From PVC group bacterium (GTDB lineage Bacteria; Auribacterota; Erginobacteria; Erginobacterales; Erginobacteraceae): a stretch of 64,000 nucleotides of DNA. Each line of letters starts with the position of its first letter. Position 1 is the stretch's first letter. The notes under the pieces were generated by a model. That model saw only the letters and a program-made list of their open reading frames with translations, did no database searches and had not been told where the DNA came from. The stretch is from NCBI GenBank assembly GCA_040773245.1, contig JAXGWO010000001.1, positions 6,498 through 70,497 on the forward strand, given 5' to 3'. This document shows, one piece after another, positions 3,119 to 60,021 of the stretch. Position numbers and translations under genes: made by a program.

Positions 3119-3270
3119 TTCACCGCGGAGGCGCGGAGGACGCGGAGAAAGATATAGTTCTATTATTTCCGCCGGATAAATTTTCGGGAAAGATTATAAT
3201 TTCGGAATTGCAAATATTCCGGGAAAAATAGCTAACATAAATTCCGCGTCCTCCGCGCCTCCGCGGTGAA
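3119..3270. repeat. GC-rich 30-bp terminal-inverted-repeat element, copy 1 (arms at about 3119-3148 and 3242-3270, AT-rich core of about 95 bp)
   Basis: The left arm is TTCACCGCGGAGGCGCGGAGGACGCGGAGA and the right arm is its reverse complement, TCCGCGTCCTCCGCGCCTCCGCGGTGAA. The core is strongly AT-rich against the roughly 68% GC background. The element fills the gap between the malic enzyme stop and the fumarase start. Confidence 0.8.
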
Positions 3271-3290
3271 TATATCGATGTACCAGGTGG

Positions 3291-4139
3291 TTGGTTATGC
3301 GTACTCTCAGGGCTGAACAGGTGGCCGAGGCGGTCGCCCGGCTTTACCGGGAGGCGGCCTGCTCGCCCGACCCGGGGCTGGAGTCGGCGCTCCGGGCCGG
3401 ACGGAAGCGGGAGGAGTCGGAGGGCGGCAAGGCGGTCCTCGACGATCTCCTGGAGAATTTGCGCCTCTCCCGCCAATCCGGCTCGCCCCCCTGCCAGGAC
3501 ACCGGGACCGCGGTGGTCTTCCTCGAAATGGGCCAGGAACTGAGAATCGAGGGCGGCAATCTCGCCGGGGCGGTGAATGAGGGTGTCCGACGGGCGGTCC
3601 GGGAGGGGTACCTGCGGCCCTCGACCGTCGCCGACCCCCTGCGGCGGGAGAACACCGGGGACAACACCCCGGCCGTCATACACCTGGAAATTGTCCCCGG
3701 GGACCGGCTGACCGTTACCGTAGCCGCCAAAGGAGCGGGGAGCGAGAATATGTCCACGGTGAAGATGCTGACCCCGGCCGCCGGGGCGGAGGAGATCGTC
3801 GAGTTCGCCTCCCGGTGGGTGGAAGAGGCCGGGGCCAATCCCTGCCCGCCGGTGGTCGTCGGGCTCGGCCTCGGCGGCAACTTCGAGACCGCCCCGCTGC
3901 TGGCCAAGAAGGCCCTCCTCAAGCCGCTGGGGGAGCGCCACCCTGACCCCTTTTACGCCGCCCTGGAGGAGAAGGTGATCGAAAGGGTCAACCGGACCGG
4001 GGTCGGCCCCGGGGGACTGGGCGGCCGCTTCACCTGCCTCGACTGCCACGTCCTCGTCCGGCCCTGCCACATTGCTTCCCTCCCGGCGGCCGTCAACCTC
4101 GACTGCTGCCTCCCCCGCCACCAAACAGCCTTCCTTTGA
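3291..4139 (+). CDS. Fumarate hydratase class I, alpha subunit (Fe-S hydro-lyase, TtdA/FumA-N type)
   Basis: The Fe-S hydro-lyase alpha signature is present: CQDTGTAVVFLEMGQE...NTPAVIHLEIVPGD...GAGSENMS...GVGPGGLGGRFT. No beta-subunit gene follows. Confidence 0.8.
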   Translation: MVMRTLRAEQVAEAVARLYREAACSPDPGLESALRAGRKREESEGGKAVLDDLLENLRLSRQSGSPPCQDTGTAVVFLEMGQELRIEGGNLAGAVNEGVRRAVREGYLRPSTVADPLRRENTGDNTPAVIHLEIVPGDRLTVTVAAKGAGSENMSTVKMLTPAAGAEEIVEFASRWVEEAGANPCPPVVVGLGLGGNFETAPLLAKKALLKPLGERHPDPFYAALEEKVIERVNRTGVGPGGLGGRFTCLDCHVLVRPCHIASLPAAVNLDCCLPRHQTAFL

Positions 4140-4147
4140 TTTAAGAA

Positions 4148-4457
4148 TTCACCGCGGCGGCGCGGAGGACGCGGAGAGGGGATCGTTGTTTATGTTATGA
4201 GTTCTCTTCTGTTTTGTACGAGCAAGCGGCATTAGTATAATCCGCAGTATTGCCGGAAGATCGGTAACGGAGCAATGGAGTGATGGAGTAGTGGAGTGAT
4301 GGGGACAAACACAATACCCAATAAATCCATTGCTCCAACACCCCAACCCGCGGAATTCACTGAACTTGGCTGACCGGACACGTTGTTTCCCACGCTAAAT
4401 AGATGAGAACCATTTTTAGAATCATTTTCTCCGCGTCCTCCGCGCCTCCGCGGTGAA
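4148..4457. repeat. GC-rich 30-bp TIR element, copy 2 (arms at about 4148-4177 and 4428-4457, core of about 250 bp that includes TGGAGTG-type heptamer repeats)
   Basis: Same arm sequences as copy 1. The core contains agcaatggagtgatggagtagtggagtgatgggg ... ccattgctccaacaccccaacc. The right arm overlaps the annotated GTG start of the downstream GT2 gene. Confidence 0.8.
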
Positions 4458-5364
4458 TTTCTTTGGTAAGTTGAGTGCGAAGACCGCTATCGTGATCGTC
4501 TCCTGGAACGGGAAGGAGGCCCTCCTGGAGTGCCTGGCTTCCCTGGAGAAGCTCGACCCGCCCCGGCCCCGGATCATCGTGGTCGACAACGGATCGACCG
4601 ACGGGACCGCCGCGGCGCTGGAAGAGAGATTCCCCGGGGTCGAGCTGGTCGCCCTCCCGGGGAACCTCGGCTTCGCCGGGGGGAACAACCGGGGGATCGC
4701 GGCGGCCCTGGAGGGCGGTGCCCGGTACGTCTGCCTGCTCAACAACGACACCGTGGCCGATCCCGGCTTCCTCAACGAAATGCTCCGGGCCGCCGCCCAA
4801 TTTCCCCGCGGCGGGATCTTCGGCTCCCGGATCCTCTACCGCTCCCGCCCGGATACCGTCTGGAGCCAGGGTATCGAGGTCTCCCGCCGGACCGGCCGGG
4901 TTTACGCCCCCCACCACAACCGTCCCGCCCGGAAGACCCCCCGTCATCCGGAACAAGTGGGCGGGGTCAGCGGGGCGGCGATGCTCCTGCGGGCGGATAT
5001 GCTGGGGGAGACCGGACTCTTCGACGAGGACTACTTTCTCTGCTTCGAGGACCTCGACCTCTGCCTGCGGGCCGGGGAAAAAGGCTGGGAGGTGATGACC
5101 GTTCCCGGTTCGCTGGTCTATCACTCGGTCAGCGGCTCGATGGGAGGCGAGTACTCCTCCCGGGTCGTCTATTACACGACCCGCAACCACCTCCTGCTGC
5201 TCGACCGCCGCCTCCCCCTCCCCCCGCCCGCCCGGGGGATGCGGTTTTTGCTGGTCACCATTTACTCGCTTCTCTTCGCCCTCTTCACCGCCGGCGGCCG
5301 CCCGGTTTCCTGGGCGCGGGGACTGAACGACTATCTCCGGGGACGGTTCGGCGAAATGAAGTGA
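4453..5364 (+). CDS. Glycosyltransferase family 2
   Basis: GT2 features: IVIVSWNGKE...IIVVDNGSTDGT...LLNNDT (a DxD-type fold). The start codon is uncertain; the GTG at 4453 lies inside the repeat arm, and an alternative TTG lies near 4471. Confidence 0.75.
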   Translation: MNFFGKLSAKTAIVIVSWNGKEALLECLASLEKLDPPRPRIIVVDNGSTDGTAAALEERFPGVELVALPGNLGFAGGNNRGIAAALEGGARYVCLLNNDTVADPGFLNEMLRAAAQFPRGGIFGSRILYRSRPDTVWSQGIEVSRRTGRVYAPHHNRPARKTPRHPEQVGGVSGAAMLLRADMLGETGLFDEDYFLCFEDLDLCLRAGEKGWEVMTVPGSLVYHSVSGSMGGEYSSRVVYYTTRNHLLLLDRRLPLPPPARGMRFLLVTIYSLLFALFTAGGRPVSWARGLNDYLRGRFGEMK

Positions 5365-5421
5365 AAAATTGCTCTTGACGAAGACGCCCGGTTGCGATAT
5401 ACCCGCCCGCAATCGGCAAAA

Positions 5422-10194: not shown

Positions 10195-12303
10195 CTACCA
10201 GGAGACGGGGAGGTAGCCCCCGCCGCCCCAGTAAGCCCGAGTCAGACCCCGGACCGCCCACAGGCCGGTGGCGGGACGGTGGACCGCCGCCCCGGCCGTC
10301 CCGGAGCCGGCGTAGTCTCCCGGCTGAGGATAGTCGGAGGCCGCGCCGAAATAGAGCCGGGTCAGCCCCCGGACCGCCCAGAACCCGCCGGACGGACGGA
10401 AGATCCCGGCCTCCGTGGAGCCGTCCCCCCAGTAGCCGCCGGGAACCGGGTAGTCCCCGGTCCGGCCCAGGTAGAACCGGGTCAGCCCCCGCACCGCCCA
10501 CAGCCCGGTCGCCGGGCGGAAGATCCCGATCCGCGCGGCCCCCTCCCCCGCCAGGTCGGCCGGCACCAGCAGGTCGCCCCCGGCTCCGAAGTAGACCCGG
10601 GTCACTCCCCGGACCGCCCACAGCCCCGAGGCCGACCGGAAGATCCCGGGGTCGGTCAGCCCGTCCCCGTTGTAGTCGGCCGGGACCGGGGAGTCGCCCG
10701 CCCCGCCGAAGTAGAACCGGGTCACCCCTCTCGCCGCCCAGAGGCCGTTGGCGGCGCGGAAGATCGCCGGGTCGGTGGTCCCGTCCCCGTCGTAATCGCC
10801 GGAGGCGGGGATGTCCCCGGACTGCCCGAAATAGAATACCTCCGGGGAGATGGGCTGGCCGAAATCAACGTACCAGCGCCCCGAGGTCGGATGCCAGGCC
10901 GAGATATCGTCGAAGCCGTCCCCGTTGTAGTCCTTGCCGTCCACCACCAGCCGGAAGAACACCGGGGTCGGCTCCGGGGGCGGCGGCACGGTCGGCGACG
11001 TGGTCGGCGGGACGGTCGGCGAAGTGGTGGGAGTGGGGGTCGCGGGGCCGCAGCGCAGCCGGGCGACGTAGTTCACCGGGCAGGGCCAGCCGGTGAAGAC
11101 CGACGGCCCGGCCCAGAGCCAGTAAACCCCGGCCGTGAGCTCGGCGGTCAGGGAGACGGTCTCGCAGGGGCCGGCGGTGGCGCTGTCGACTTGCACCAGG
11201 TCGATGCAGTCCTCGCTGCCCGCGTCGAAGATGAAGATCAGGGAAGGGAACTCCGCGGTGACCGACCAGGTGATGGAGTCGTCGGCCTCCAGGCTCAGCC
11301 GGAACCAGTCGGTGTCCCGGTATTGGGCCGATTCTTCGCCATAGAGATAGTTCCCGCTGGTGGCGCAGATCACGTCGCCGCAGTAGATGTCCTGGAAGAC
11401 GGCCGGGTCGGAGTTGCAGCCCCCGTTGTAGCTGTCCACGTAGTCCTCTTGGCAGGGCGGCTCCCCCTCGGGCAGCCCGCCCGGCGGGCAGGGAGCGCAG
11501 GGCGTCGGCGTCGCGGTCGGGATCGGGGTCTTGTAACCGAACGGGGTCGCGGTGCTCGACGGGGTGGGGATGGGCGAGGTCAGGCTGTAAAGGACGGCCA
11601 GGCCGTCGTACACCGGGCCCGGCGCCCCCGGGTTGCAGGAGTACTCGAGCGCGTCGCTGCCGGCGGCGTTCTCGATTCCCAGCGTGGCCGACCGCCCGCC
11701 GGCGTAATCGCCTTCGCCGTCGGACATCGTGTTGAACTGGGTTTTGATCTCGTTGGAACCCTCGTAGAGGATGGCCTGGAAGGTCAGGCGGGACCCGGAG
11801 TCGCTGATATGGGGGACCTGGTACCACTCGACGACGAACTCCCGGTCGGGGGCCGAACCCAGAGTTTCATAATACACCGCCGACGAGGGATTGTGGTAGA
11901 GGCCCAGGTCATCCCAGAAGGCGTAGACGGCGGCGTTGGGGTTTTCCGGGTCGGGGATGCAGACGTTGCTGTAGGCCGAGCACCCGGCGGAGTCGAAGGT
12001 GATGAAGCCGTTGGAGGAGACCACCGCCTCGGTGTAGGTGTTGCCGTAGAAGTCGAAGCTGAAACCGATCGGTGCGGACTCGCAGGCATCATCGGAGCCG
12101 GTCAGGTCGGTGAGTTCCGTCCCGGTTCCGCCCTCGGGCGGGGCGATCTCGACCCAGGAGAAGGGTTCCTGGGGGGCGGGGAGGTTGCTGTCGTACCAGT
12201 AGTGGCCGAAGCCGTCGGGGCCGCCGGTGGCGGCATAGAGCGCCGGGGCGGAGAGGAAGAGGAAGACAACGGCAAGACACGACAACCGGGACAGGATTTT
12301 CAT
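10195..12303 (-). CDS. Secreted protein with an N-terminal beta-sandwich/lectin-like region, Pro/Thr linkers and a C-terminal FG-GAP/VCBS-like repeat module
   Basis: A signal peptide MKILSRLSCLAVVFLFLSAPALYA follows an RBS gggagg. The C-terminus carries about 8 repeats of the form [35 protein letters not shown]. Confidence 0.6.
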   Translation of the reverse strand: MKILSRLSCLAVVFLFLSAPALYAATGGPDGFGHYWYDSNLPAPQEPFSWVEIAPPEGGTGTELTDLTGSDDACESAPIGFSFDFYGNTYTEAVVSSNGFITFDSAGCSAYSNVCIPDPENPNAAVYAFWDDLGLYHNPSSAVYYETLGSAPDREFVVEWYQVPHISDSGSRLTFQAILYEGSNEIKTQFNTMSDGEGDYAGGRSATLGIENAAGSDALEYSCNPGAPGPVYDGLAVLYSLTSPIPTPSSTATPFGYKTPIPTATPTPCAPCPPGGLPEGEPPCQEDYVDSYNGGCNSDPAVFQDIYCGDVICATSGNYLYGEESAQYRDTDWFRLSLEADDSITWSVTAEFPSLIFIFDAGSEDCIDLVQVDSATAGPCETVSLTAELTAGVYWLWAGPSVFTGWPCPVNYVARLRCGPATPTPTTSPTVPPTTSPTVPPPPEPTPVFFRLVVDGKDYNGDGFDDISAWHPTSGRWYVDFGQPISPEVFYFGQSGDIPASGDYDGDGTTDPAIFRAANGLWAARGVTRFYFGGAGDSPVPADYNGDGLTDPGIFRSASGLWAVRGVTRVYFGAGGDLLVPADLAGEGAARIGIFRPATGLWAVRGLTRFYLGRTGDYPVPGGYWGDGSTEAGIFRPSGGFWAVRGLTRLYFGAASDYPQPGDYAGSGTAGAAVHRPATGLWAVRGLTRAYWGGGGYLPVSW

Positions 12304-12460: not shown

Positions 12461-15400
12461 CTACCGGGTGACCGGGATGTCTCCCCCGGTCCCGAAGTAG
12501 GCCCGGGTCGCTCCCCTCACCGCCCACAAACCCGTGCCGGGACGGAAGACCGCGGCCTGGCCGAGGGCGGCGCCGGTGAAGTCCCCGACGACCGCGGTGT
12601 CGCCGATCCGTCCATAGTAGAACCGGCTGTCGCCCCGGATCGCCCAGAGTCCGGTGGCGGGCCGGAAGATCGCGATCCCGGCCCGGAAGGACCCGTACCA
12701 GCAGTAAACCCCGGGGACCGGGATATCGGAGGCGGAACCGTAGTAGGCCCGGGTCAGGCCCCGGATCGCCCAGAGGCCGGAGGAGGGCCGGAAGATCGCG
12801 ATCTCCTTCGCCCCGTCGCCGTCGTAGTCGCCCGGGACCGGGAGATCCCCCGCCCGGCCGAAGTAGACCCGGGTCAGGCCCCGGACCGCCCAGAGGCCCG
12901 ATGCCTCCTGGAAGACCGCCGGCGACGCGGTCCCCGACCCGTCGTAGTCCCCGGAAACCGCGAGGCCGGCGACGCCGAAGTAGCAGCGGGTGCGGGTCTT
13001 GACCGCCCAGAGGCCGGAAGACGGCCGGAAGACCGCCACGTCGGCCGGGCCGGCGCCCTGGTAGTCGGCGGGGACCGGGATATCCCCCGCCCGGCCGAAA
13101 TATGTCCTGCCCAGCCCCCGGACCGCCCAGAGACCGGAAGACGGCCGGAAGACCGCGATATCCGCGATCCCGTCGCCGTCGTAATCCCCGCTGTCGATCA
13201 CTAGGTACTCCGGCGTGGGATAGACCGTCGGCGTCGGGGTGGTGATGGGCGTTGGAGTTGCAGTAGAGGCCGGGGTAACGCCCGCCGTCGCAGTCGGTTC
13301 CGGGGTCGGAGGCGGAGTCGGGGGGACCGTGGGCGGCGGAGTCGGAGGCACCGTCGGCGGAGGGGTCGGGGACGAACTCGCGGTGGCAGTAGGAGTCGCG
13401 CTGGCGGTCGGGGTGGCGGAAGGCGACGGGGTGGGGGTCGAGGTCGGGGGCGGGGTTGGGGTGATCAGGCAGCGCCGGAAGACCTTGCCGCCCGCGCCAT
13501 CGGAGTTGGCCACCCCGGCGAAGAGGCAGGGGAAGCACCCGGCCAGGGAATGGACCGCCTCGTTTCCAGCGTCACCAAAGCCGTTCTCGTTGACTTGGGT
13601 CCAGGCCGCCCAGCCGTACTCCCAGACCTGGCCGCCGGAAGGGGTGCCGGAGTCGTTCCCGGTCCCCACGTAGAGGCGGCCGTCGAAGACCTCCATACAG
13701 CGGGCGGAGTCGTACTGCATAGCGGAGGAGTCGTTACGCTCGAGGTTCCCTCCCTTGTATTCCCAGACCTGGCAGGAGACGGACCAGCCCGCCGTCCCTA
13801 CGAAGAGGGAAGGACCGGCGGCGGCCAGGCTCCGGAACTCGACGAAATTTCCGCCGAAGCCTCCCTCGGTAACCAGGGCCCAGTCGGTGGTCCCGGGACC
13901 GTCGTAACGGTAGAGGCGGGCGTAATCGGTGGTGTTGTAAACCCCGGCATAAACCTTGCCGTCATAGACGGCCAGGGACCGGATCGCCTGGTTGTCGCTG
14001 TCGCCGAAGCCGTTCTCGTTGACCTGGGTCCACTCGGACCAGTCATAGGTAAAGACGGCCCCCTGCCAGGAGGTCCCCACCCAGAGCTTCCCGTCGTGGA
14101 CGACCATCGAGGATGCCCAGGTGTTGTTATCGTCCCCCAGGCCGCCCGAGGCCCGCCGGGTCCAGGAGGAACCATCGTAGGACCAGACCTCGAAGCCGTC
14201 GCTGTTGTTCGCCGTCCCCACGAAGAGCTCATCGCCGAAGATAGCCAGGGAATGGGCGCCCCGGTTCTGGGAAGTGCCGAAGCCGCCGTCGGTCATCACC
14301 GTCCAGTCGGAGGGGTCGGGGCCGTCATAACGCCAGATCTCGCAGCCGTCGGTGTTGTTCCAGGTTCCGGCGTAGATGCCGCCGTCGTAGCAGGCCAGGG
14401 CGAAAGCCGAGAAGTTGTTGGTATTGCCGAAGCCGTCCTCGTTGATCTGGGTCCAGTCGCTCCAGTTCCCGGTCGGGACCGGGACCGGGGTCGGGGGGAC
14501 GGAGGGGGTGGGCGTGAAGGTGGGCGTCGGCGACGGGGTCTTGTAGCCCTCGGGGGTCGGGGTGGTTGAGGGCGTTGCGGTGGGGGGCGGCGTGGTCGAT
14601 GGTGTGGGGGTCACCGACGGGGTCGGGGTCGGTGTGACCGATGGGGTCGGGGTCACGGATGGTGTAACTGAGGGCGTCGGGGTGACCGAGGGCGTCGGGG
14701 TGACGGTCGGGGTCTTGTAGCCCTCGGGCGTGGGTGTCGGCGTCGGCGTGGTGTAGTAGCTTAAAAGCTCGAACCTGGTCACGAAGCCGTCATCTCCCCC
14801 CCCGCGGGCGGCCTGGAAGGGATCGGCGGTGGGGAAGTTGATCGAAGCCGTCCGGCCGACCGCGTAAATCCTGCCGTCGGCGCCAACATCGACCGCGTAA
14901 CCGAAATCGTTGCCGCTGCCGCCGAGATAGGTGGAGAACTGCAGATCGGAGCCGCCGGAGGAAAACCGGGAGATGGTGGCGTCGTAACCTCCGGGACGAG
15001 CGGGCTGGATGGCAGCCGCGGTGGGGAAGTTGGGCGAGACGGTGATCCCGATCACCCAGGCATTGCCGTCCTGGTCCACGGCGACCCCCTCGCCGTAATC
15101 CCAGTCCCATCCGCCCAGGTAGGTTGAATAGACGAGCGATTGCCCGTCGGGTGCGAACCGGGTGACGAAGTAGTCCGGCTGCCCGCTGATGGCCGCCTGG
15201 TAGGGGTTGACGGTGGGGAAGTCGTTGGACTGGGTGATGCCGGTCAGGTAGACCCCGTCATCGGGGCCGAGGCCGATCCCGACCGCCTGGTCGATATCCT
15301 CTGCGCCGCCGAGGAAGGTGGAGAAGACCAGGGACAAACCGCTCGGGTCGAACTTGGTGAGGACGGCGTCCCAGCTGCCGGGGGATGGCCCGGCGTGGCC

Positions 15401-16795
15401 CGGCTGGTAGGCGTTCAGGGTCGGGTAGTCGGTGGAGGTGGTGGCCCCGGAGAGGTAGGCGTGGCCGGAGGAGTCCACCGCCACCCGGGGGTACTCGTGG
15501 CCGCCGCCGCAGCCGCCCAAATAGGTGGAGTAAACCAGGGCGGAACCGTCGGGCGAGAACTTGGTCAGGGTGAAGTTGTAGCCGCTGGAGACGGCGTTGG
15601 CGGCCTGGAAGGCGTTGAGGGTCGGGAAGTCGGTGGACCAGGCCCGGCCGGCGACGTAGGCGGAGCCGGAACCGTCCACGGCCACGGCGTAGCTGTATTC
15701 GAACATCGAGCCGCCGAGGTAGGTGGAGTAGAGCAGGGAGGAGCCGTCGGCGGCGAGCTTGGCGGCGAAGATGTCGGTCCAGAATCCGTTCCGCGCGGCC
15801 TGGAAGGGGTTGACGGTCGGGAAGTTGTTGGCGTCGGTGTAGCCGCAGATGTAGGCCTGGCCGGCCCCGTCGACGGCGATCCCCATACCCAGGCTGGCCC
15901 CGCCGCTCCCTCCCAGGTAGGTGGAGTAGACCAGGGAAGCGCCGTCGGGGGTGAACCTGGTGACGAAGGCGTCCTGGCTGCCGCGGCGGATCGGCTGGTA
16001 GGCGGCCGCGGTGGGGAAGTCGGCGGAGTAGGTGTATCCGACAACGTAGGCGCAGCCGTCGGTGCCGGCGGCGATGTCCTGGGCGGAGTCGTCGCCGGAA
16101 CCGCCCAGGTAGGTCGAGTAGTCGAAGTCCCAGCGCTCGATGTAGTTCTCCGGGGTGGGAGTGACCATCGGCGTCGGAGATGGCGGCGCGGTCGGCGGAG
16201 GGGTCGCCGTCGGCGGAACGCTCGGCGTGGCCGTCGGCGGCACGGTCGGCGGAGGGGTCGCGGTCGGGGGCACAGTCGGTGTCGCGGTGGTGGCGGCAGC
16301 CCCCACCACGGGGTAGTCCTCGACCTCGCCAAAATCAAAAGTCCCGCAGGGATCGGCCGCGCCGCCCCACTTCAAAATCGCCCGCAGGCGGGTCGGCCCC
16401 GAGAGGGCACCCGACGGCACCGTGATTGTGCCGGTGAAATCGGTCCAGGCCGGGGGCGGGGGGGAGACGGTGAGCTGGGTCCACTCGCCGGCGTCGGAAA
16501 AGCTGGAGTTCTGGTTCCAGTCCACCCAGATGTCGCAGCGGTCTCCATCCCAGGTTTCGTTGTTGGCCACAATGATCTCGTAGGAAGACTCGGGGCTGAC
16601 CACGGTCGAGAAGGCCGTAAAATCGGAATAGTAACTCCCCGTGGTGGAGTTGTCGATCGAGCCGAACTGGACCCGGCTGATGTACTCCACCGAGTAATCC
16701 GTGGAGCTCGCGCTGCAGAAAGTCTGGGCCGAAGCCGTCCCCACCGCCAGCAGCAGAAGAACTGATACCAAAACCGCCGTGATCGCTCTTTTCAT
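12461..16795 (-). CDS. Giant (1444 aa) secreted surface protein: a GEVED domain, Pro/Thr-rich linkers, two SBBP-type beta-propeller regions and a C-terminal FG-GAP/VCBS-like repeat module
   Basis: The domain order is: signal peptide, then the GEVED motif ([14 protein letters not shown]), then repeated [37 protein letters not shown] SBBP units, long [11 protein letters not shown] linkers, and finally 7-8 [19 protein letters not shown]...DYDGDG repeats. Confidence 0.65.
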
Positions 16796-19164: not shown

Positions 19165-19203
19165 GGGATACTCCAGGAAACACGGTTCTGACTTGAGCGA
19201 ACT

Positions 19204-19272
19204 GGAGTAGTGGAGTGTTGGAGTATTGGGTGGCTATTCCCAACCCCACCACTCCATCACTCCACCACTCCA
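19204..19272. repeat. Imperfect inverted repeat built from TGGAGTG-type heptamers
   Basis: It reads ggagtagtggagtgttggagtattggg ... cccaaccccaccactccatcactccaccactcc. It is related to the core of TIR element copy 2 (4271-4348). Confidence 0.6.
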
Positions 19273-19339
19273 TTCAGGCTCAATATCTGGCTTACTGGCT
19301 GTTCACCACCCATACGAAACGGGCTGGCAATCTTCAAAC

Positions 19340-24157: not shown

Positions 24158-24189
24158 TCCGAGGTGGGGTTGGGCGCGCTGCTCCGGCG

Positions 24190-25143: not shown

Positions 25144-25262
25144 TTAGCATTCATCACTTAACCCTGGGCCGATCTCGCCCGGCATCAAGCCGGATATCAT
25201 TTCAAAGATTATCCGGCACCGGACGAAATTAGCAAGAATAAACGGGCCGGGGTCACGCTTCC

Positions 25263-27233: not shown

Positions 27234-27299
27234 CGGTCTGTCAGTGCAGCACGGGCATTCCTGCCCGGGTGCCGCCCCGAACAGACAGGAATGTCTGTT

Positions 27300-28892: not shown

Positions 28893-28979
28893 CGCAGCGC
28901 AGGCAGTCCTGCCTGTGCAGCGGACGACACAGGCAGGAATGTCTGTGCTACTTTGCCGACACGGACAGGAATGTCCGTG

Positions 28980-50436: not shown

Positions 50437-51536
50437 CCCCCCCGCCCGGGAAACCGAAACTGGCTTTCGTGGTCAAGTACTACCGCCCGATGCCGCGGCT
50501 CTCGGGGATTCTCCGCTTCGCGATCGACCTGGTCGAGAACCTGGAGGCGGAGTTCGAGATCCGGGTCTTCACCAGCCGCTACTCGCCGGAGGTCCCGGAA
50601 TACGAGAGGTGCCGCGGCCACGAGATCGTCCGCCTGCCGGGCCCCTTTCCCTTCCGGGCCGGATGGTCGGCCGGGAAGTGGGACCCCGACCTGACCGTCT
50701 TCGGGTCGGGATTCTGGCGATCCTGGTTCCTCCTGCCCTACTGGTTCCTCTTCCGTTGCGGCCTGGGGCGGGCAAACGGACCCGTAATCCTGGCCCAGTT
50801 CACCAATATGACCGGCCGGTTCTTCCGGCTGCTCCGCCTCCTCCGCCCCCGCCCGGCGGCGGTGATCGCCCTCACCGAGCCGCTCCGGGAGCGGTGGGAG
50901 AAACTCCTCCCCGGACTGACCGCCTTCATCCCCGCCGGGATGGCGCTCCCCTCCCCGGAACAAAAGTTCCCGGACCCGGAGATCCCCCCCTCCCCCTTCC
51001 GGATCGGGTTCTTCGGGCACCTGGAGCCCCACAAGGGGCCGGATATCCTGCTGAGAATCTATAAGGAACTCAATCCGCCGGGGACCGACCTGATGATCAA
51101 CGGGGTGGGAGAGATGGAGGAGGAACTCCGGCGGGATTCCCGGGGCTGGAAGAATATCGCCATCCAGGGCTACGTCCCGGAGATCGACCCCTGGATCCAC
51201 TCCTGCAAGCTGATGGTCTTCCCCTACCGCTCCAGCGTCTCGGTCCTCGGCTACTCGCGGGCGGCCCTCGACGGCCTGGCCGCCGGCATCCCCCTGATCG
51301 TCACCTCCTCCCCCGCCCTCGCCCCCCTGGTCCGGGACGGTGAGAACGGCTATGTCTGCCGGAACGAGGAGGAGATCAAGGAGAAGATCCGGGCCGTCAT
51401 CGCCGACCCGGGCCTCCGGAAAAAGCTCGCCGCCGGCGCGAGGCGGGCCGCCGAAGAGTACGACATCCGCCGGATCGCCGGGCGGTGGTCGGAGTTGTTG
51501 CGGAGGGTGGGGGGGATAGTAAGCAGTGAGCAGTAA
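50433..51536 (+). CDS. Glycosyltransferase family 1/4 (GT-B)
   Basis: The C-terminal GT4 motif region reads GYVPEIDPWIHSCKLMVFPYRS...GLAAGIPLIVTSSP...DGENGYVC. Its last codons and its stop lie inside composite repeat A. Confidence 0.75.
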   Translation: MTPPPGKPKLAFVVKYYRPMPRLSGILRFAIDLVENLEAEFEIRVFTSRYSPEVPEYERCRGHEIVRLPGPFPFRAGWSAGKWDPDLTVFGSGFWRSWFLLPYWFLFRCGLGRANGPVILAQFTNMTGRFFRLLRLLRPRPAAVIALTEPLRERWEKLLPGLTAFIPAGMALPSPEQKFPDPEIPPSPFRIGFFGHLEPHKGPDILLRIYKELNPPGTDLMINGVGEMEEELRRDSRGWKNIAIQGYVPEIDPWIHSCKLMVFPYRSSVSVLGYSRAALDGLAAGIPLIVTSSPALAPLVRDGENGYVCRNEEEIKEKIRAVIADPGLRKKLAAGARRAAEEYDIRRIAGRWSELLRRVGGIVSSEQ

Positions 51537-51778
51537 GCAGTGAGCAAAGTGCAAAGAGCATAGCGCATAGCGCCAGGGCATAGAGATTCGCGGTTGAGAT
51601 GGGGAGTGGGCAGTAGGCACAAGTCGATCCAATCCGTGTAATCTGTGTAATCAGTGGACTAAAAAGAGGGCGGGGCGAGGTTGATTAAAATAATTCGTGG
51701 CAATTAGTGGAATTAGTGGACAGCCAAAGGGGGCGCGGCGGGGGTTGATGAAAATTAATTCGTGGTAATTCGCGGACG
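51511..51778. repeat. Modular composite repeat, copy A (long form, about 270 bp)
   Basis: The module order is GCAGTGAGCAGTAAGCAGTGAGC, then GCATAGCGCATAGCGCC, then CGCGGTTGAG, then GGGGAGTGGGCAGTAGGCA, then CAAGTCGATCC, then GTGTAATCTGTGTAATCAGTGGA, then AGAGGGCGGGGCG, then TTGATTAAAA, then AATTCGTGGCAATTAGTGGAATTAGTGGA. It is AT-rich relative to the genome. Confidence 0.8.
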
Positions 51779-51782
51779 GAAG

Positions 51783-53255
51783 ATGAAGATGGTGAGAGGG
51801 ACAGCCTACCTGGCCGCCGCCGAGGTGGTCTTCGTGATCAGCGGCTGGATCATCCACGTCGGCTCGAAGCGCATCCTGGGATTGGTCGAGTACGGGACCT
51901 TCGGCATTCTCCTCTCCCTCCTCACCCACTACCGGATCTTTCTCGCCACCGGGGTCAACCGGGCGGTCTCCCGGGAGATCTCCCGGGAACCCTCCCGGGA
52001 CCGATCGATCCGGAGGGGGGCGCTGAAACTCCAGCTGGGCCTGGGCCTGGGCCTGGGCCTGGCGGTCTGGCTGGCGGCGCCGGGGCTTTCCGGGATCTGG
52101 GGGGATCCGCGGTTCACCGGCTATATCCGGCTGACCGCCTTCTTCCTCCCCGCCTTCGGGATCTACTCGGTCTACCGGGGCGTCCTCAACGGCCACACCC
52201 TCTTCGGGGCGGAGGCCCGCGTATCCATCATCTATTCCGGCCTCAAGGTCGCCGGCCTCTTTTCCCTCATCTTCCTCTTCTCCGCGCTGGGCCGAGACCG
52301 CGTCTCCGGGGCGGTCGGCGGGTACCTGGCCGCCGTCACCGGGGCGGTCTTCCTGGCCCGGGCGCTCTGCCCGCCAGCCGGGGGGGAGGACGGCCCCCCG
52401 TTCCCGCTGGGGAAGATCGCCGCCTTCGCCTTCCCGGTGGTTCTCTTCTCCTTCATCATCAGCCTGGTCCAGCATCTGGACCTCTACTTCGTCCGCGCGC
52501 TGCTGCCGGAGGAAGCCGAGGCGGCGGGGCTTTACACCTGCGCCCAGCAGTTCGCCCGGATCCCCTATATGTTCCTCTACGCGCTGAGCCTGACCATCTT
52601 CCCCGTGGTCGCCGGACGGATCGCGATCGCCGGCGGGGAAACGGCCGCGGCCGCCACCATTCGGCGGGCCCTGAGGGGAGGGCTGCTGGTGGTCCTGCCG
52701 CTGGCCGCCCTGATCGGCGCCAACGCCAGATCCCTGCTCGGCTGGGTTTACGGCCCGGACAGCGCGGCCGGGTCGGCGGCCCTGGAGGTCCTGATCTTCG
52801 GCCAGACCCTCCTCGCTCTTCTCCTGGTCCTGGCCACCGTCATCACCGCCCGGGGGCGGCCCTGGGTCTCCTTTTCCCTGGTCACCGCCACCCTGGCGCT
52901 GGCCGGGATCCTGAATAATTACCTGGTCCCGGAAGCCGGGATCCGGGGAGCGGCGATCGCCACTACCGTGGCCGCCGGGTTGGGGATGGCGGGGGCGGGG
53001 GTGATCGTCTACCGTCTCTTCGGGGCCCTCTTCCCGCCGGCCGCCACCGCCAGGATCGCGGCCGCGGCGGCCCTGGTCTTCGCCCTCGGCCGCTGGTGGG
53101 CGCCGGCCGGCTGGCTGCTTCCCCCGGCCCTGGCGACCCTGGCCGGGGTCTACCTGCTCGTTCTCTTCGGGCTGCGGGAGCTGACCCCCGGCGACGGGAA
53201 GATGATCCTCTCCCTCTTCCGCAAGCCTCCCCCCGCCCCCGGTATAGTCCACTAA
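51783..53255 (+). CDS. Polysaccharide flippase/exporter of the MOP superfamily (Wzx/MATE-like)
   Basis: It has about 12-14 TM helices, and the length and helix spacing are typical of Wzx/MurJ/polysaccharide biosynthesis proteins. The start was taken as MKMVRG. It is bracketed by inverted copies of the composite repeat. Confidence 0.6.
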   Translation: MKMVRGTAYLAAAEVVFVISGWIIHVGSKRILGLVEYGTFGILLSLLTHYRIFLATGVNRAVSREISREPSRDRSIRRGALKLQLGLGLGLGLAVWLAAPGLSGIWGDPRFTGYIRLTAFFLPAFGIYSVYRGVLNGHTLFGAEARVSIIYSGLKVAGLFSLIFLFSALGRDRVSGAVGGYLAAVTGAVFLARALCPPAGGEDGPPFPLGKIAAFAFPVVLFSFIISLVQHLDLYFVRALLPEEAEAAGLYTCAQQFARIPYMFLYALSLTIFPVVAGRIAIAGGETAAAATIRRALRGGLLVVLPLAALIGANARSLLGWVYGPDSAAGSAALEVLIFGQTLLALLLVLATVITARGRPWVSFSLVTATLALAGILNNYLVPEAGIRGAAIATTVAAGLGMAGAGVIVYRLFGALFPPAATARIAAAAALVFALGRWWAPAGWLLPPALATLAGVYLLVLFGLRELTPGDGKMILSLFRKPPPAPGIVH

Positions 53256-53480
53256 TTTCACTAATTACCACGAATTTTTTAATCAACCCCGCCCCGCCCT
53301 CTTTTATTCGTCCACTGATTACACAGATTACACGGATTACACGAATTGGATCGACTTGTGCCTACTGCCCACTCCCCCCCTCAACCGCGAATCCCGCAAA
53401 TCTATACGAACCTGTCCCCCGTTAACTTCGAACTTTGAACTTCGAACTTTGAACTTCTTACCCCACTCCCCATTCCCCGA
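53249..53480. repeat. Modular composite repeat, copy B (inverted relative to copy A)
   Basis: Its reverse complement matches copy A over about 140 bp, from CGCGGTTGAG through GTGTAATCAGTGGA to AATTCGTGGTAATTAGTGAAATTAGTG. It also carries a tandem CGAACTTTGAACTT x2 and a CCCCACTCCCCATTCCCC module. It starts at the flippase stop codon. Confidence 0.8.
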
Positions 53481-57425: not shown

Positions 57426-58451
57426 ATGACCAGTTTTTTCGACCAGGTAAAATACAACGATAAGTTTCGGGACTTCGTCCTCCCGATGGAAGAGCTGGCC
57501 CTGATCCGGGACGCCACGATCTTCGTCCACCAGGACGGCTTCCTTCTCTTCTCGGAAGGTTACTGCCACCCGCCGGGCAAACTGATCTGCAATATCATCT
57601 ACATCCCGGACCCGAAGGGGAAGAAGGAGGTCTTCGGCCTCCCCTACCGCTCGATCATCAAGCGGGACCAGGACGGCGAGGAGGCCTGGGTCAACTACGA
57701 GTCCCAGCTGGAGATCTACCGGGAACTGGCTCCGGAGTCCCAGGTCGGCAAACCTCCCTACGCCCGCTACAAGTGCCAGTTCGACCTCGCCGACCTGGTC
57801 GGCTTCGTCGATCACCGCCGCTCGCTGAAGAAAGCCCGGGAACTCTCCCCGGAGATCGACCAGGCGATCCACAACGTCGCCGGGATGCTCCGGATCGACC
57901 CCGAAACCATCGGGGTCACCGGTTCGCTCTCGCTCGGCAACCTGAAGACCGCCCACGATTTCGACCTGGTCTTCTACGGCACCGTCGCCGAGAGCTGGAA
58001 GATCGTCGACCAGATCTACCGGATCGTCGAAGACCCCAAGCGCCAGGTCTTCGAGATGGGGATGCTCTGGGCGATCCGTTTCTTCGACGACTGGGGGAAT
58101 ATGATCTGCCCTTTCTTCTCCTACACCGACCTCTCCGAGATTCCGCTCAAGGATTTTTCGATGGAGATGGAGGAAGGCGGGCTGGAGATGGAGGGCACGG
58201 TGACCGACGACCGGCACACCTTTTATATGCCCTCGGTCCTCCGGCTGGCCGAGTCTTCCATCCCGGGCCGCCGGGACCTGTCCGAGCTGGACCTGATCCT
58301 CTACCACGGGGGACTCCGCGGCGAATACCGGGTCGGCGACCGGGTCCGGGCCCGGGGCGACCTGGTCCGGGTGACCGGCCGGAATGGTTCTTATCCCGCC
58401 TTCCTCTGCACCAACCTGAGCGAGACCGGGAAGGTGGGCAGTGGGGAGTAG
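57426..58451 (+). CDS. Uncharacterized NTase-signature protein, paralog 3 (in tandem with paralog 2)
   Basis: It has GVTGSLSLGNLKTAHDFDLVFYG plus the family motifs ATIFVHQDGFLLFSEGYCHPP, ICPFFSY and LILYHGGLRGEYRVGDRVRARG. Its stop codon lies inside composite repeat C. Confidence 0.5.
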   Translation: MTSFFDQVKYNDKFRDFVLPMEELALIRDATIFVHQDGFLLFSEGYCHPPGKLICNIIYIPDPKGKKEVFGLPYRSIIKRDQDGEEAWVNYESQLEIYRELAPESQVGKPPYARYKCQFDLADLVGFVDHRRSLKKARELSPEIDQAIHNVAGMLRIDPETIGVTGSLSLGNLKTAHDFDLVFYGTVAESWKIVDQIYRIVEDPKRQVFEMGMLWAIRFFDDWGNMICPFFSYTDLSEIPLKDFSMEMEEGGLEMEGTVTDDRHTFYMPSVLRLAESSIPGRRDLSELDLILYHGGLRGEYRVGDRVRARGDLVRVTGRNGSYPAFLCTNLSETGKVGSGE

Positions 58452-58503
58452 GGAGTAGGCAGTGGGCAGTGGACAGAGAGCAGAGCGCATAGAGCATAGC
58501 GCC
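58432..58503. repeat. Modular composite repeat, copy C (short form)
   Basis: It reads GGTGGGCAGTGGGGAGTAGGGAGTAGGCAGTGGGCAGTGGACAGAGAGCAGAGCGCATAGAGCATAGCGCC, which corresponds to the GGGAGT/GCAGTGGGCAG and GCATAGCGC modules. Confidence 0.75.
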
Positions 58504-58540
58504 AGTAACTAACCATCAGCGGACTGAACAGGGATTAAAA

Positions 58541-59827
58541 ATGAAAACAAAGACCAAATCCGTGAAGACAACGAAACCCCCAGCCGAGACCAACCCGCTG
58601 AGGCTGGCCCTCAGCCAGCTCGACCGGGTGGCGAAGAAGATCAAGCTCGACCCCTGCATCCACGAAAAGCTCAAGCACCCCAAGACCATCCTGATCGTCT
58701 CGGTCCCGATCAAGATGGACAACGGGAAGCTGAAGGTCTTCACCGGCTACCGGGTCCAGCACAACATCGACCGGGGCCCCTCCAAGGGGGGGATCCGTTA
58801 CCACCCCGAGGTCTCCCTCGACGAGGTCCAGGCCCTGGCGATGTGGATGACCTGGAAGTGCTCGGTGATGGGTTTGCCCTACGGGGGGGCGAAGGGCGGG
58901 GTCTGCTGCAACCCGAAGAAACTCTCCGAGCGGGAGCTGGAGAAGATCACCCGCCGCTTCACCACCGAGATCACCCCCTTCATCGGACCCCGGAAGGACA
59001 TCCCCGCCCCCGACGTCTACACCAACCCCCAGACGATGGCCTGGATGATGGACACCTTCAGTATGCACTCGGCCTACGCCGTTCCCGGGGTAGTCACCGG
59101 CAAGCCCCTGGAGATCGGCGGTTCCTACGGCCGGAACGAAGCCACCGCCCAGGGCTGCGTCTTCGCCGTCGAGGAGTTTCTGAACTACCGGGGGAAGGAA
59201 CTGGCCGGGTCCACGGTAGTCATCCAGGGCTACGGGAACGCCGGGTCCTTCGCCCACAAGATCGCCCAGGCCGAGGGAGCCAAGGTGATCGCCGTCTCCG
59301 ACAGCAAGTCCGGAATCGTCAACCCCGCCGGTCTCGACTACCCGGCCGTCTCCGCCTTCAAGGAAAAGACCGGCTCGGTGAAGAACTTTCCCGGGGCCAG
59401 GAACATCACCAACCGGAACCTCCTGGAGCTGGAATGCGACGTCCTGATCCCGGCGGCCCTGGGCAACCAGATCACCGCCGCCAACGCCCCCCGGATCAGG
59501 GCCGGCCTGGTCGCCGAGGCCGCCAACGGCCCCACCACCGAAGAGGCCAACGCCGTCCTCCACCGGCGGGGGATCCCGGTCATCCCCGACATCGTCGCCA
59601 ACGCCGGGGGGGTGGTGGTGAGCTGCTTCGAGTGGGCCCAGAACCTGATGGGCTACTTCTGGACCGCGGAGGAGGTGAGCTGCCGCCTCCAGGACATTAT
59701 GGTCCTGGCCTGTCGGAAGGTCTGGGAACTGGCGCAGAAGGAAAAGATCGACCTCCGCCTGGCCGCTTATATGGTGGCAGTGAGCCGGGTGGCCGAAGCC
59801 GCCCGCCTCCGCGGCATCTACCCCTGA
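58541..59827 (+). CDS. gdhA: Glutamate dehydrogenase (Glu/Leu/Phe/Val dehydrogenase family, about 428 aa)
   Basis: The catalytic region reads KGGIRYHPEVSLDEVQALAMWMTWKCSVMGLPYGGAKGGV. The Rossmann motif is GYGNAGS, and GGVVVSCFEWAQN is present. Confidence 0.9.
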   Translation: MKTKTKSVKTTKPPAETNPLRLALSQLDRVAKKIKLDPCIHEKLKHPKTILIVSVPIKMDNGKLKVFTGYRVQHNIDRGPSKGGIRYHPEVSLDEVQALAMWMTWKCSVMGLPYGGAKGGVCCNPKKLSERELEKITRRFTTEITPFIGPRKDIPAPDVYTNPQTMAWMMDTFSMHSAYAVPGVVTGKPLEIGGSYGRNEATAQGCVFAVEEFLNYRGKELAGSTVVIQGYGNAGSFAHKIAQAEGAKVIAVSDSKSGIVNPAGLDYPAVSAFKEKTGSVKNFPGARNITNRNLLELECDVLIPAALGNQITAANAPRIRAGLVAEAANGPTTEEANAVLHRRGIPVIPDIVANAGGVVVSCFEWAQNLMGYFWTAEEVSCRLQDIMVLACRKVWELAQKEKIDLRLAAYMVAVSRVAEAARLRGIYP

Positions 59828-59843
59828 GCCGGCCCCAAATATA

Positions 59844-60021
59844 TCACCGCGGAGGCGCGGAGGGCGCAGAGAAATATTTTTATTAGTCTGGCCTGGGAAA
59901 GACTGCTGACCTCGGAGCGGCAGAAAAGCGCACCGAGAATTATTCCCGGATGATCCAGCCCGCGAACCCGGCCGACAATCCCCAACCACCCTCCCCGCGT
60001 CCTCCGCGTCTCCGCGGTGAA
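59844..60021. repeat. GC-rich 30-bp TIR element, copy 3 (arms at about 59844-59874 and 59991-60021, AT-rich core of about 115 bp)
   Basis: The left arm is TCACCGCGGAGGCGCGGAGGGCGCAGAGAAA and the right arm is CTCCCCGCGTCCTCCGCGTCTCCGCGGTGAA. It fills the gap between the gdhA stop and the convergent paralog-4 stop. Confidence 0.8.

Follow-up and report, generated by a model that had tools for sequence, protein, structure and literature searches.

Palindromic hairpin elements downstream of metabolic genes in Ca. Erginobacter: candidate ORF-less relatives of a nuclease-linked, pan-bacterial cassette family

Three palindromic elements that form long GC-rich hairpins lie in a 64-kb stretch of DNA (the window) from Ca. 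Erginobacter (Auribacterota), each just past a stop codon and each made of two facing arms around an unrelated core. We put even weight on the reading that they belong, as members without an ORF, to a pan-bacterial family of palindromic cassettes, comparable to MITEs and Correia elements, that makes no target duplication, is linked to a nuclease and plays a part at RNA 3' ends. The same arm design encloses a nuclease gene elsewhere, and the window copies are therefore likely non-autonomous relatives. No published description of the repeat family was found in the literature.

Three elements with shared arms and unrelated cores

A search of the window with the 30-mer arm at up to 3 mismatches returns exactly 6 matches, which form 3 convergent pairs (Table 1); none are expected by chance in 100 dinucleotide-preserving shuffles of the window. 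The three paired-arm copies proposed in the initial annotation are therefore real. The 28-30-nt arm has TTCACC followed by CGCGGAG three times, at intervals of 8 and then 9 nt. The GCGGAGG sub-repeats recognized earlier are likewise genuine and follow a fixed layout of ACC, hexamer, 2 nt, hexamer, 3 nt, hexamer. Arms are nearly identical between copies, as described, but the accompanying claim of perfect inverted repeats needs slight amendment to nearly perfect: element 1 has 28 perfect pairs, element 2 32 nt with 1 mismatch and element 3 24 nt at 92%. The right arm of element 1 and the left arm of element 2, which bracket fumA, are also 97% complementary over 29 nt. The enclosed cores differ in length and sequence, in agreement with the initial annotation, and are mutually unrelated in both orientations (z <= 1.1 against shuffles). 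No relative of the element 3 core was found.

Table 1. Arms, cores and neighbouring genes of the three elements (window coordinates)
Feature	Position	Strand	Remarks
Malic enzyme gene	1752..3113	+	Pfam; upstream neighbour of element 1
Element 1 left arm	3119..3148	+	TTCACCGCGGAGGCGCGGAGGACGCGGAGA; starts 5 nt past malic-enzyme stop
Element 1 core	3149..3240	.	92 nt, AT-rich
Element 1 right arm	3241..3270	-	Ends 26 nt upstream of fumA ATG (3297)
Fumarate hydratase alpha subunit gene (fumA)	3297..4139	+	Pfam; between elements 1 and 2
Element 2 left arm	4148..4177	+	1 mismatch to consensus; starts 8 nt past fumA stop
Element 2 core	4178..4427	.	250 nt
Degenerate hairpin of a second cross-phylum family	4262..4349	.	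GGAGCAATGGAGTGATGGAGTAGTGGAGTGATGGGG ... CCATTGCTCC; nested in element 2 core
Element 2 right arm	4428..4457	-	Followed by TTTCTTT
Glutamate dehydrogenase gene (gdhA)	58541..59827	+	Pfam; upstream neighbour of element 3
Element 3 left arm	59843..59872	+	3 mismatches; starts 15 nt past gdhA stop
Element 3 core	59873..59991	.	119 nt
Element 3 right arm	59992..60021	-	2 mismatches; ends 10 nt short of the convergent gene's stop codon
Gene convergent with gdhA	60032-61084	-	Stop codon faces element 3

Pfam bears out the earlier naming of the neighbours as malic enzyme, fumarase alpha and gdhA, and all three left arms do begin directly after stop codons. The further claim that each copy reaches the start of the next gene or runs into it does not survive. 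Element 1 stops short of the fumA ATG, a start inferred from 280-aa homologues. Element 2 touches only the longest-ORF GTG (4453) of a gene whose conserved N-terminus begins near 4473, and element 3 adjoins a stop codon, lying between those of gdhA and the convergent gene. No transposase, recombinase, integrase or GxxExxY gene was found in the 64-kb window. Elsewhere in the window, at 51500-51760, palindromes occur in mosaic with other motifs in a REP/BIME-like arrangement.

A cross-phylum arm family associated with GxxExxY nuclease genes

Far from being genome-specific, the arm is present in more than 118 stretches that span at least 15 phyla, which speaks decisively against the suggestion that the 30-mer might be confined to three paralogous loci. 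Cultured carriers include Botrimarina colliarenosi, Methylibium rhizosphaerae and Lacimicrobium alkaliphilum. An inverted partner lies within 3 kb of 71 of 126 arm matches. A search of 1.11 Mb of fetched loci with a generalised arm pattern yields 391 arms, compared with 0.06 per shuffled window. Neighbouring arms in these loci form 130 convergent pairs, with TTCACC ends pointing outward, against 20 divergent and 41 direct. Family members elsewhere are mostly convergent pairs with loops of 13-180 nt, most of them 13-60 nt. The concern that arms might prove to be unpaired single sites elsewhere holds for only a minority of copies. Spacers between hexamers are mostly 2 nt, then 3 nt, and 74 of 253 distinct arms carry the same hexamer three times (8.2 expected).

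The MITE reading of the initial annotation comes closest, although only in part. In its favour, arms are dispersed and mostly intergenic in searches across genomes, ORF-bearing relatives exist, and whole elements, core included, are multicopy on chromosome OW818684 and in a second Auribacterota MAG. One core family occupies 2-3 sites per genome in both orientations in two genomes (L203, L205), and another locus (L031) has a hairpin from a different arm family that contains a nested element with these arms. Against it, no target-site duplications were found at element borders, and a known transposase is absent. Viral contigs nearly lack the arm 24-mer (2 matches in 2.9 million), so that no vector for horizontal spread is evident.

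The ORF-bearing relatives encode GxxExxY proteins, a family (TIGR04256/PDDEXK_3, PF13366) annotated only as protein of unknown function. An arm pair encloses such a gene in locus L051, and a flanking inverted repeat scoring >=15 occurs at 57 of 75 metagenome PDDEXK_3 loci; coordinates shifted by 900 nt gave 0/42 and 0/45. At 66 of 75 sampled GxxExxY (PF13366, PD-(D/E)XK) genes the best arm is of the heptamer type. Two loci, L051 and L166 (arm ATTCACCGCGGAGGCGCGGAGGCGCGGAG), carry the same heptamer as the window arms. The protein inside the arm pairs is ~120 aa long and, judged by its sequence, a PD-(D/E)XK nuclease with conserved catalytic residues (E29, D69, E79 and K81 show no variation among 23 of these proteins). 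No relative of solved structure is detectable by sequence, and no paper describing arms that flank GxxExxY genes was found. The GxxExxY cassettes themselves stay at orthologous sites over long divergences. The cassette family is probably tied to this PD-(D/E)XK nuclease, and the window elements would most likely be non-autonomous relatives of a selfish nuclease cassette.

Retention, inversion and replacement among relatives, and competing readings

The malic-fumA and fumA-downstream junctions carry a hairpin in 10/10 relatives, with FumA identity down to 67% and conserved synteny of the genes bracketed by elements 1 and 2. No empty site was found among these ten relatives, so that mobility stays putative for this lineage; recent transposition is unsupported here because the same sites are filled in every relative examined. 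Nor were GxxExxY, transposase or recombinase genes found in the relatives' loci. Long retention of hairpins at both sites is compatible equally well with host function.

Host-owned RNA hairpins, such as long terminators, RNase III processing sites or mRNA-stabiliser stems that are selected in place and immobile, are accordingly the chief competing explanation, which we consider somewhat unlikely. Such stems would punctuate the icd-malic-fumA-GT2 row and the convergent gdhA junction, with the similarity of copies arising from gene conversion of a preferred hairpin module. The earlier suggestion of a long RNA stem is physically right: as RNA, the window elements fold into stems of 24-30 bp with z-scores of -6 to -11 and energies of -86 to -146 kcal/mol. 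Left flanks are A-rich and right flanks T-rich, element 3 is flanked by two stop codons, and in other phyla, 23 of the 26 elements that could be measured start 2-38 nt past a stop codon. The junction hairpins of relatives can even have arms of a wholly different family (AT-rich, CAAATAA-type in L206 and L207; L206 also has GGAGTAATGGAGT-type arms). A hairpin, however, needs no single sequence, yet TTCACC and the three-heptamer 8/9-nt design recur in at least 15 phyla; the need for a hairpin is by itself insufficient for arm sequence conservation on this scale. Between the window and one relative (L033), 2 of 112 arm positions differ, against 31% of fumA four-fold sites (P about 2e-15). Host-owned stems also leave unexplained the outward bias of TTCACC and the placement of arms around nuclease genes elsewhere. 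In ORF cassettes, sense-strand G.U mismatches do not exceed A.C mismatches (36 vs 42, p = 0.57), 33% of pairs mismatch at spacer positions, and the host genome has ordinary short intrinsic terminators elsewhere.

Each arm might instead be a stand-alone, iteron- or operator-like array of three heptamer sites for a DNA- or RNA-binding protein, with pairing incidental. Both the heptamers and the 8/9-nt distances between them are conserved, the bases of the spacers match least well, about one arm in three is unpaired or otherwise arranged, and at one locus (L029) directly repeated as well as solitary arms surround a GxxExxY gene. Such an array is improbable all the same: two thirds of arms pair convergently, agreement between partners at spacer positions reaches 67% (32% expected), a compensatory GGAC-to-GGCC change affects both arms in L204, and no candidate regulator is known. 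The proposal would overlap with the nuclease-linked cassette reading if the binding protein were the cassette nuclease.

Inversion of cores raises the question of invertons, in which a recombinase would flip the AT-rich core between the arms and so switch the promoter of a neighbouring gene. The element 1 core is homologous to the same-site cores of L204 (reverse score 62-63, forward 18-21, z = 26) and L033 (z = 7) in the opposite orientation, cores at this site in L203 and L205 are oriented opposite to those in L208 and L202, and glycosyltransferases are among the downstream neighbours. A promoter scan nonetheless found no sigma-70-type promoter in the cores, and the window has no recombinase gene. 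Only one orientation is seen in a close strain (L209) and two Logan contigs (L199, L200), and loops elsewhere are mostly too short for a promoter. Cores are poorly conserved or replaced; the 250-nt core of element 2 and the 88-nt core that L033 has at this site show no relationship (z = 0.5). Ordinary recombination between 28-30-bp inverted repeats would give flips over evolutionary time, and a dedicated switch is more doubtful still than a binding array.

The attC/attI and riboswitch readings of the initial annotation, which we regard as highly improbable and effectively refuted by these tests, rest on a superficial likeness (imperfect inverted repeats of variable length at gene 3' ends, strong predicted folds): the arms lack a GTTRRRY/RYYYAAC core site and any R'/R'' consensus, the window has no integrase or cassette array and the bracketed housekeeping genes are syntenic across relatives, while Rfam gives no gathering-threshold match and, at E <= 10, nothing beyond noise, and the cores, besides lacking conservation, can be inverted or exchanged.

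Comparison with known repeats and a proposed mechanism

Correia elements are known only from Neisseria, share a conserved core and generate a duplication of a TA target. These elements (CREE/NEMIS) are intergenic, ~100-150 bp long, bounded by ~26-nt inverted repeats and co-transcribed with their neighbours, and the window elements match them in size, closeness to a stop codon and 24-30-bp stems. In contrast, the present family spans at least 15 phyla, makes no target duplication, has interchangeable cores and three-heptamer arms, and includes ORF-bearing relatives that encode a PD-(D/E)XK nuclease. RNase III binds the long Correia hairpin, which it cleaves or protects, and the element can alter adjacent gene expression (PMC2649163; PMC10969869).

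REP, REPIN and BIME sequences are similarly short, GC-rich extragenic palindromes, frequently inverted doublets right after genes, that form mosaics with other motifs and lack target duplications. A REP unit by itself forms an imperfect palindrome headed by GTAG or CGTC (PMC3733652), and a single-copy enzyme acting in trans, RAYT, is proposed to mobilise REPINs (PMC3116915; PMC3733652). In the present family a TTCACC head is instead followed by three tandem repeats, and single arms as a class are not palindromes. Unlike REP sequences, which are restricted to particular lineages, this arm recurs in many phyla; no Y1 (RAYT) gene was seen, and the linked ORF is a PD-(D/E)XK protein. Intervening sequences (IVS) of 23S rRNA have a terminal inverted-repeat stem that encloses a variable, at times ORF-bearing loop, are excised from the transcript by RNase III, and may have a link to the four-helix-bundle IVS protein family. 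They offer a parallel for a hairpin cassette tolerated inside a transcription unit, but the present elements lie between protein-coding genes, not in rRNA, and RNase III cleavage here is only putative. The arms that bracket GxxExxY genes share the window arm design; the window elements differ in having no ORF.

Under the nuclease-linked cassette reading, the family would be defined by its arm, a TTCACC terminus and three heptamers (here CGCGGAG) at 8- then 9-nt spacing, with two arms facing one another and their TTCACC ends outward. A sequence-specific constraint might preserve the arms: the family nuclease could recognise them, copies could undergo gene conversion, or the two could act together. 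The elements would spread and turn over by break repair or recombination, since the lack of target duplications argues against a cut-and-paste mode of transposition. The arms, 28-30 bp long, could serve as recombination handles, leaving the DNA between them free to invert, swap or take in other hairpins, while elements would persist directly downstream of stop codons. Once transcribed, the elements are predicted to fold into 24-30-bp GC-rich hairpins between A-rich and T-rich tracts. By analogy with Correia elements in Neisseria, these RNA hairpins probably mark transcript ends at gene 3' ends, as terminator-like structures, RNase III substrates or exonuclease blocks that would act as 3'-end or processing signals.

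Three arm-bounded elements in the window

Scanning the window with the 30-mer TTCACCGCGGAGGCGCGGAGGACGCGGAGA yields six matches at ≤3 mismatches, where 100 dinucleotide-preserving shuffles predict zero, and these six form three convergent pairs. The three copies described in the initial annotation are thereby borne out. Each arm is a 28-30-nt unit of TTCACC and three CGCGGAG sub-repeats, with TTCACC facing outward; the inverted repeats span 24-32 nt and enclose no ORF. Perfect arm complementarity, claimed for every copy, holds for element 1 and fails for elements 2 and 3. The cores (the DNA between the arms) are mutually unrelated in either orientation, as proposed (z ≤ 1.1), and the placement of each copy just after a stop codon also stands. 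The further claim that each copy ends at or inside the start of the next gene does not. Element 1 ends 26 nt short of the fumA ATG at 3297, a start placed from 280-aa homologues, element 2 overlaps only the GTG at 4453 of a longest-ORF call, and element 3 adjoins a convergent minus-strand gene (60032-61084) at its stop codon.

Positions of the arm-bounded elements and of other repeats (window coordinates unless a locus is named)
Feature	Position	Arms (left / right)	Complementary arm positions	Length; core (nt)	Upstream gene (stop codon to left arm)
Element 1	3119-3270	3119-3148 / 3241-3270	28/28	152; 92	malic enzyme (5 nt)
Element 2	4148-4457	4148-4177 / 4428-4457	31/32	310; 250	fumarase alpha (8 nt)
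Element 3	59843-60021	59843-59872 / 59992-60021	22/24	179; 119	glutamate dehydrogenase (15 nt)
Nested hairpin in element 2 core	4262-4349				
Related hairpin between two genes	19203-19275; L079 3455-3520				
Composite inverted repeat		51585-51721 / 53247-53393			
Intergenic mosaics	51499-51566; 58421-58502; 61125-61337				
Short palindromes	27278-27300; 28896-28949; 28958-28980				
120-nt-period coding repeats	10213-10872; 12485-13190; 23686-26042; 28998-29706				
12-nt-period runs	10938-11069; 13288-13449; 16138-16287				
Divergent patch, close strain	3149-3296; L209 116-263				
Insert interrupting arms	L202 2295-2322, 3363-3390; L203 3495-3522				
Toxin-antitoxin pair	L205 3596-4080				
Nested element of OW818684	L052 4780-4992; L056 4733-4948; L076 6263-6488				

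Other repeats occur alongside. A composite inverted repeat of ~137 nt surrounds a Polysacc_synt (flippase) gene at 51762-53255. Its four blocks, 91-100% complementary, are other "triple sub-repeat" arms with GTGGAC ends (for example, AATCCGTGTAATCTGTGTAATCAGTGGAC), and thus an ordinary flippase gene sits inside a stack of nested arms. The intergenic mosaics combine GCAGTGA and GCATAGC heptamers with CCACTAATT/CACGAATT units, and their arms are common to several loci in both orientations, in a BIME-like manner. A separate hairpin family (GGAGTAGTGGAGTGTTGGAGT ... ACTCCATCACTCCACCACTCC) recurs in a Verrucomicrobiia MAG (L079) and at loci L009 and L206, and ACAGGCAGGAATGTCTGT-type palindromes lie beside the genes at 27300-28892. 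The 120-nt-period repeats fall within several large secreted-type proteins (FG-GAP, Lcl_C, SBBP domains), and runs with a 12-nt period are also present.

Arm design, phyletic spread and GxxExxY nuclease genes

The arm extends far beyond the three window loci, to which the 30-mer might have been confined. When scanned over one genome per species, the degenerate 24-mer TCACCGCGGNGNCGCGGAGGNCGC matches in at least 118 stretches from at least 15 phyla. The matches listed include Acidobacteriota, Planctomycetota, Verrucomicrobiota, Lentisphaerota, Spirochaetota, Myxococcota, Desulfobacterota, Binatota, Chloroflexota, Gemmatimonadota, Latescibacterota, Hydrogenedentota, Elusimicrobiota, Sumerlaeota, Auribacterota and Beta-/Gammaproteobacteria, with Botrimarina colliarenosi Pla108, Methylibium rhizosphaerae and Lacimicrobium alkaliphilum as cultured carriers. 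An inverted partner lies within 3 kb for 71 of the 126 matches listed (loops of 21-530 nt, mostly <110 nt), and a few matches fall inside coding sequence, possibly by chance. Viral contigs contribute only 2 matches to the arm in 2.9 million. One arm-bearing contig (L100) is binned as a Thermoplasmatota archaeon MAG, which could be mis-binning or genuine archaeal presence.

Arms follow a strict layout of TTC, ACC, hexamer, 2 nt, hexamer, 3 nt, hexamer or, equivalently, TTCACC and then three heptamers at 8-nt and 9-nt spacing. Searched over the fetched loci (1.11 Mb), this pattern identifies 391 arms, compared with 0.06 per shuffled window, and neighbouring arms in these loci pair convergently, with TTCACC facing outward, in 130 cases, divergently in 20 and directly in 41. 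Heptamer types include CGCGGAG, CGCAGAG, CACAGAG, CACGGAG and CGCAAAG, and all three sub-repeats are the same within 74 of 253 distinct arms (8.2 expected). Spacers are the worst-matched arm positions, with mismatches that are largely transitions, and they match between paired arms at 67% of positions (32% expected). Loop lengths over all pairs form two groups, 13-175 nt and ~375-520 nt, a split that arises partly from locus sampling; the window elements fall in the ORF-less group.

Arms of this design bracket genes for GxxExxY proteins (TIGR04256; Pfam PDDEXK_3, PF13366), a PD-(D/E)XK nuclease family of ~120 aa. In a Tepidisphaeraceae MAG (L051), one arm pair surrounds a 130-aa ORF that matches both PDDEXK_3 (E = 1e-42) and the NCBIfam model TIGR04256, "GxxExxY protein". 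A second GxxExxY gene (L029) has arms alongside in direct orientation, and a further locus (L166) carries the arm sequence ATTCACCGCGGAGGCGCGGAGGCGCGGAG. The reverse test used 80 metagenome loci encoding relatives of the L051 protein, 75 of them with sufficient flank. A flanking inverted repeat scoring ≥15 is found at 57 of these 75 loci, compared with 0/42 and 0/45 when coordinates are moved by 900 nt. The best arm is heptamer-type in 66 of the 75, with canonical orientation in 62 of those 66. All 23 sequences compared keep the catalytic D, E and K as well as the GxxExxY glutamate; sequence and profile searches of the PDB returned no solved structure for a GxxExxY nuclease. Cassette ORF calls often extend into the arms, producing peptides like MIHHGDTETRS and SAPSASLR. 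Four-helix-bundle (PF05635) genes may sit in arms of a similar kind.

All three window elements fit the arms of GxxExxY cassettes, being convergent with TTCACC outward and three heptamers. Their cores measure 92-250 nt, and phmmer with the L051 ORF against window ORFs of ≥60 aa gives no match, leaving the arms without a GxxExxY ORF. A search of the 64-kb window for a cognate enzyme yielded a RecQ helicase and a PLD-like protein only, and neither a transposase, an integrase or a recombinase nor a PDDEXK_3 gene.

Orthologous sites and relation to known repeat classes

The window is ~85% identical to a contig of Ca. Erginobacter occultus (L033; Auribacterota, PVC group) across icd, malic enzyme, fumA and GT2. 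Ten syntenic loci of relatives were reached via FumA homologues, and all ten carry a hairpin element both at the malic enzyme-fumA junction and after fumA. A comparison of orthologous intergenic regions, suggested for presence or absence, therefore finds every site filled among the ten, and the changes seen are limited to arm-family switch, core inversion and core replacement. Arms of the CGCGGAG type occur in the window, L209, L033 and element 1 of L204. CGCAAAG/CGCAGAG arms with TTCACC or TGAACC ends occur in L201-L203, L205, L208 and element 2 of L204, and L206 and L207 have arms either of an AT-rich CAAATAA type or of GGAGTAATGGAGT type. Element 2 of L204 departs from that of L033 in core as well as arm type, with flanking genes that are 93% identical. 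Comparison of the window with L033 shows 2 differences in 112 arm positions, whereas fumA four-fold sites differ at 31% (P ~2e-15). In L204, a compensatory GGAC-to-GGCC change affects both arms.

The core of element 1 is homologous to the L204 and L033 cores in reverse orientation only (L204, reverse score 62-63 and forward 18-21, z = 26; L033, reverse 28.5 and forward 19, z = 7), which is why forward alignment failed. Within the CGCAAAG clade, one core family occupies two or three sites per genome, and its orientation at a given site varies. For element 2, the window core is unrelated to that of L033 (z = 0.5) and contains a degenerate hairpin nested within it; this hairpin belongs to another cross-phylum family, with further members at 19203-19275 and in one Verrucomicrobiia and one deltaproteobacterial MAG. 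In a close strain (L209, 98.7% identical), the two elements share the orientation seen in the window.

Smaller features were noted at these sites. The element 1 core differs between the window and L209 at 6 of 92 nt, with several further differences in the 26 nt before fumA and only 2 of 181 at fumA four-fold sites, and this stretch is a local patch of excess divergence. Two relatives have, between them, three elements in which a 26-28-nt insert (CCTTCGACTTCGCTCAGGATCTTCGAC) interrupts an arm, and the L201 and L202 cores carry GTCATTGCGAGGAGCGAAGCGACGAAGCAATCTC-like motifs; both look like further tiny repeat families. At the fumA-GT2 site of L205, two hairpin elements flank a toxin-antitoxin pair (Unstab_antitox and a 98-aa ORF), which suggests that arms are able to frame other cargo.

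We rate the family as belonging with palindromic intergenic repeats or MITE-like elements, and the open-access literature yielded no earlier description of the arm sequences or of GxxExxY cassettes. The MITE reading of the initial annotation stands in part. Terminal inverted repeats around a short non-coding body are present; the window copies share arms only, while copies that include the core exist elsewhere, in the L203 and L205 cores, at three loci of the OW818684 chromosome and on two contigs of another Auribacterota MAG (L023/L098, 91.5% identity). Target-site duplications are the part that fails: flanking direct repeats of 2-8 nt do not exceed shuffled pairing in 136 elements, and none is seen at the window copies. 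Presence/absence polymorphism at orthologous sites is likewise lacking among the ten relatives, and ORF-bearing elements of the same arm design encode a predicted PD-(D/E)XK nuclease rather than a recognised transposase. The three OW818684 copies (70-77% identical) are dispersed and nested, with outer arms of the CGCGGAG type and inner arms of the AGTGAAAAGTGAGTAGTG type.

REP/REPIN units are imperfect palindromes of 20-40 nt headed by GTAG or CGTC, whereas the present arm is TTCACC followed by three tandem heptamers. Its sole internal palindrome is a 5-bp CCGCG/CGCGG mini-stem produced by the CGCGGAG heptamer itself, and no Y1 (RAYT) transposase gene lies within the 64-kb window. An inverton reading could draw on the core inversions, but it fails, as these are seen only between species. 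Near-identical contigs (L209 and the Logan contigs L199 and L200) show a single core orientation, a sigma-70 scan of the three element regions gives no promoter match, and the window holds no recombinase. Integron attC arrays are defined by RYYYAAC ... GTTRRRY sites, intI/attI and promoterless cassettes; the proposed likeness to them falls because the arms end in TTCACC/GGTGAA and lack R''/R' sites, the window has no integrase domain and the neighbouring genes are syntenic across relatives. A riboswitch is rejected, since nothing in the window matches Rfam at gathering score and 3050-4520 gives only noise at E ≤ 10 (E = 4-9, far under gathering scores).

Candidate roles in RNA and DNA

The suggestion of a long RNA stem is upheld by folding. 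The element RNAs have closing stems of 24-30 bp and energies of -86.2, -145.6 and -89.7 kcal/mol for elements 1, 2 and 3 (z = -11, -9 and -6). An intrinsic terminator combines a short GC-rich stem-loop with a direct U-tract, and the window elements, with 28-30-bp stems around loops of 92-250 nt, do not resemble a typical one; ordinary intrinsic terminators are present elsewhere in the window. All that a terminator scan picks out is the mini-stem CCGCGCCTCCGCGG with TGAATTTCTT or TGAAGTTTTT at the arm ends, without excess over shuffles. Across the family, left flanks are A-rich and right flanks T-rich (31-43% T). For 23 of the 26 elements measurable in other phyla, a stop codon lies 2-38 nt before the element, and the surrounding genes are co-directional in 16, convergent in 5 and divergent in 2 (23 usable, too few for a test of divergent depletion). 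Because they sit just past stop codons with A/T-rich flanks and 24-30-bp stems, the elements are likely transcript 3'-end or RNase III-type processing signals, however they spread. Correia elements provide a precedent for such a role (PMC2649163; PMC10969869). On the sense strand of ORF cassettes, G.U mismatches show no excess over A.C (36 vs 42), and arm matching therefore lacks a signature of RNA-level selection.

Generic need for a hairpin would not yield a fixed design, an outward conserved terminus, six matching heptamers per element and a cross-phylum distribution, and these features point instead to sequence-specific recognition of the arms as DNA. That a gene for a predicted, catalytically intact PD-(D/E)XK nuclease is enclosed time and again suggests a selfish cassette, and the ORF-less hairpins may be its non-autonomous relatives. 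Several results would agree with a spread through recombination or repair in place of transposition: target duplications are missing, fixed sites stay occupied over long periods, the arms are conserved well beyond neutral expectation, and the DNA between them is inverted and replaced. We infer this account of cassette, recognition and spread as a whole, no empty site having been found. Its fullest form is possible but doubtful: GxxExxY proteins would be the enzymes of pan-bacterial selfish hairpin cassettes and the arms their recognition sites. Repair of nuclease-induced breaks would then spread and homogenise the cassettes in a homing-like manner, without target duplications, and leave ORF-less hairpins, the three in the window included, as non-autonomous progeny. 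Hosts might co-opt such hairpins as operon punctuation, and the hairpins could also act as recombination handles for flipping or exchanging intergenic DNA.

Lineage specificity is the norm for palindromic intergenic repeats (REP, ERIC and Correia elements, for example), yet at least 15 phyla have a single 30-nt arm and a strict arm design in common. Arms of this design bracket the genes of a large protein family known by its motif name alone, which supplies a testable hypothesis for the role of the GxxExxY nuclease, and cassette ORF calls that enter the arms might explain many spurious small annotated ORFs. Since B. colliarenosi Pla108, M. rhizosphaerae and L. alkaliphilum are cultured carriers, roles in RNA and in DNA are both directly testable. 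The elements may also point to a mechanism by which intergenic DNA is inverted or swapped while its boundaries stay fixed.
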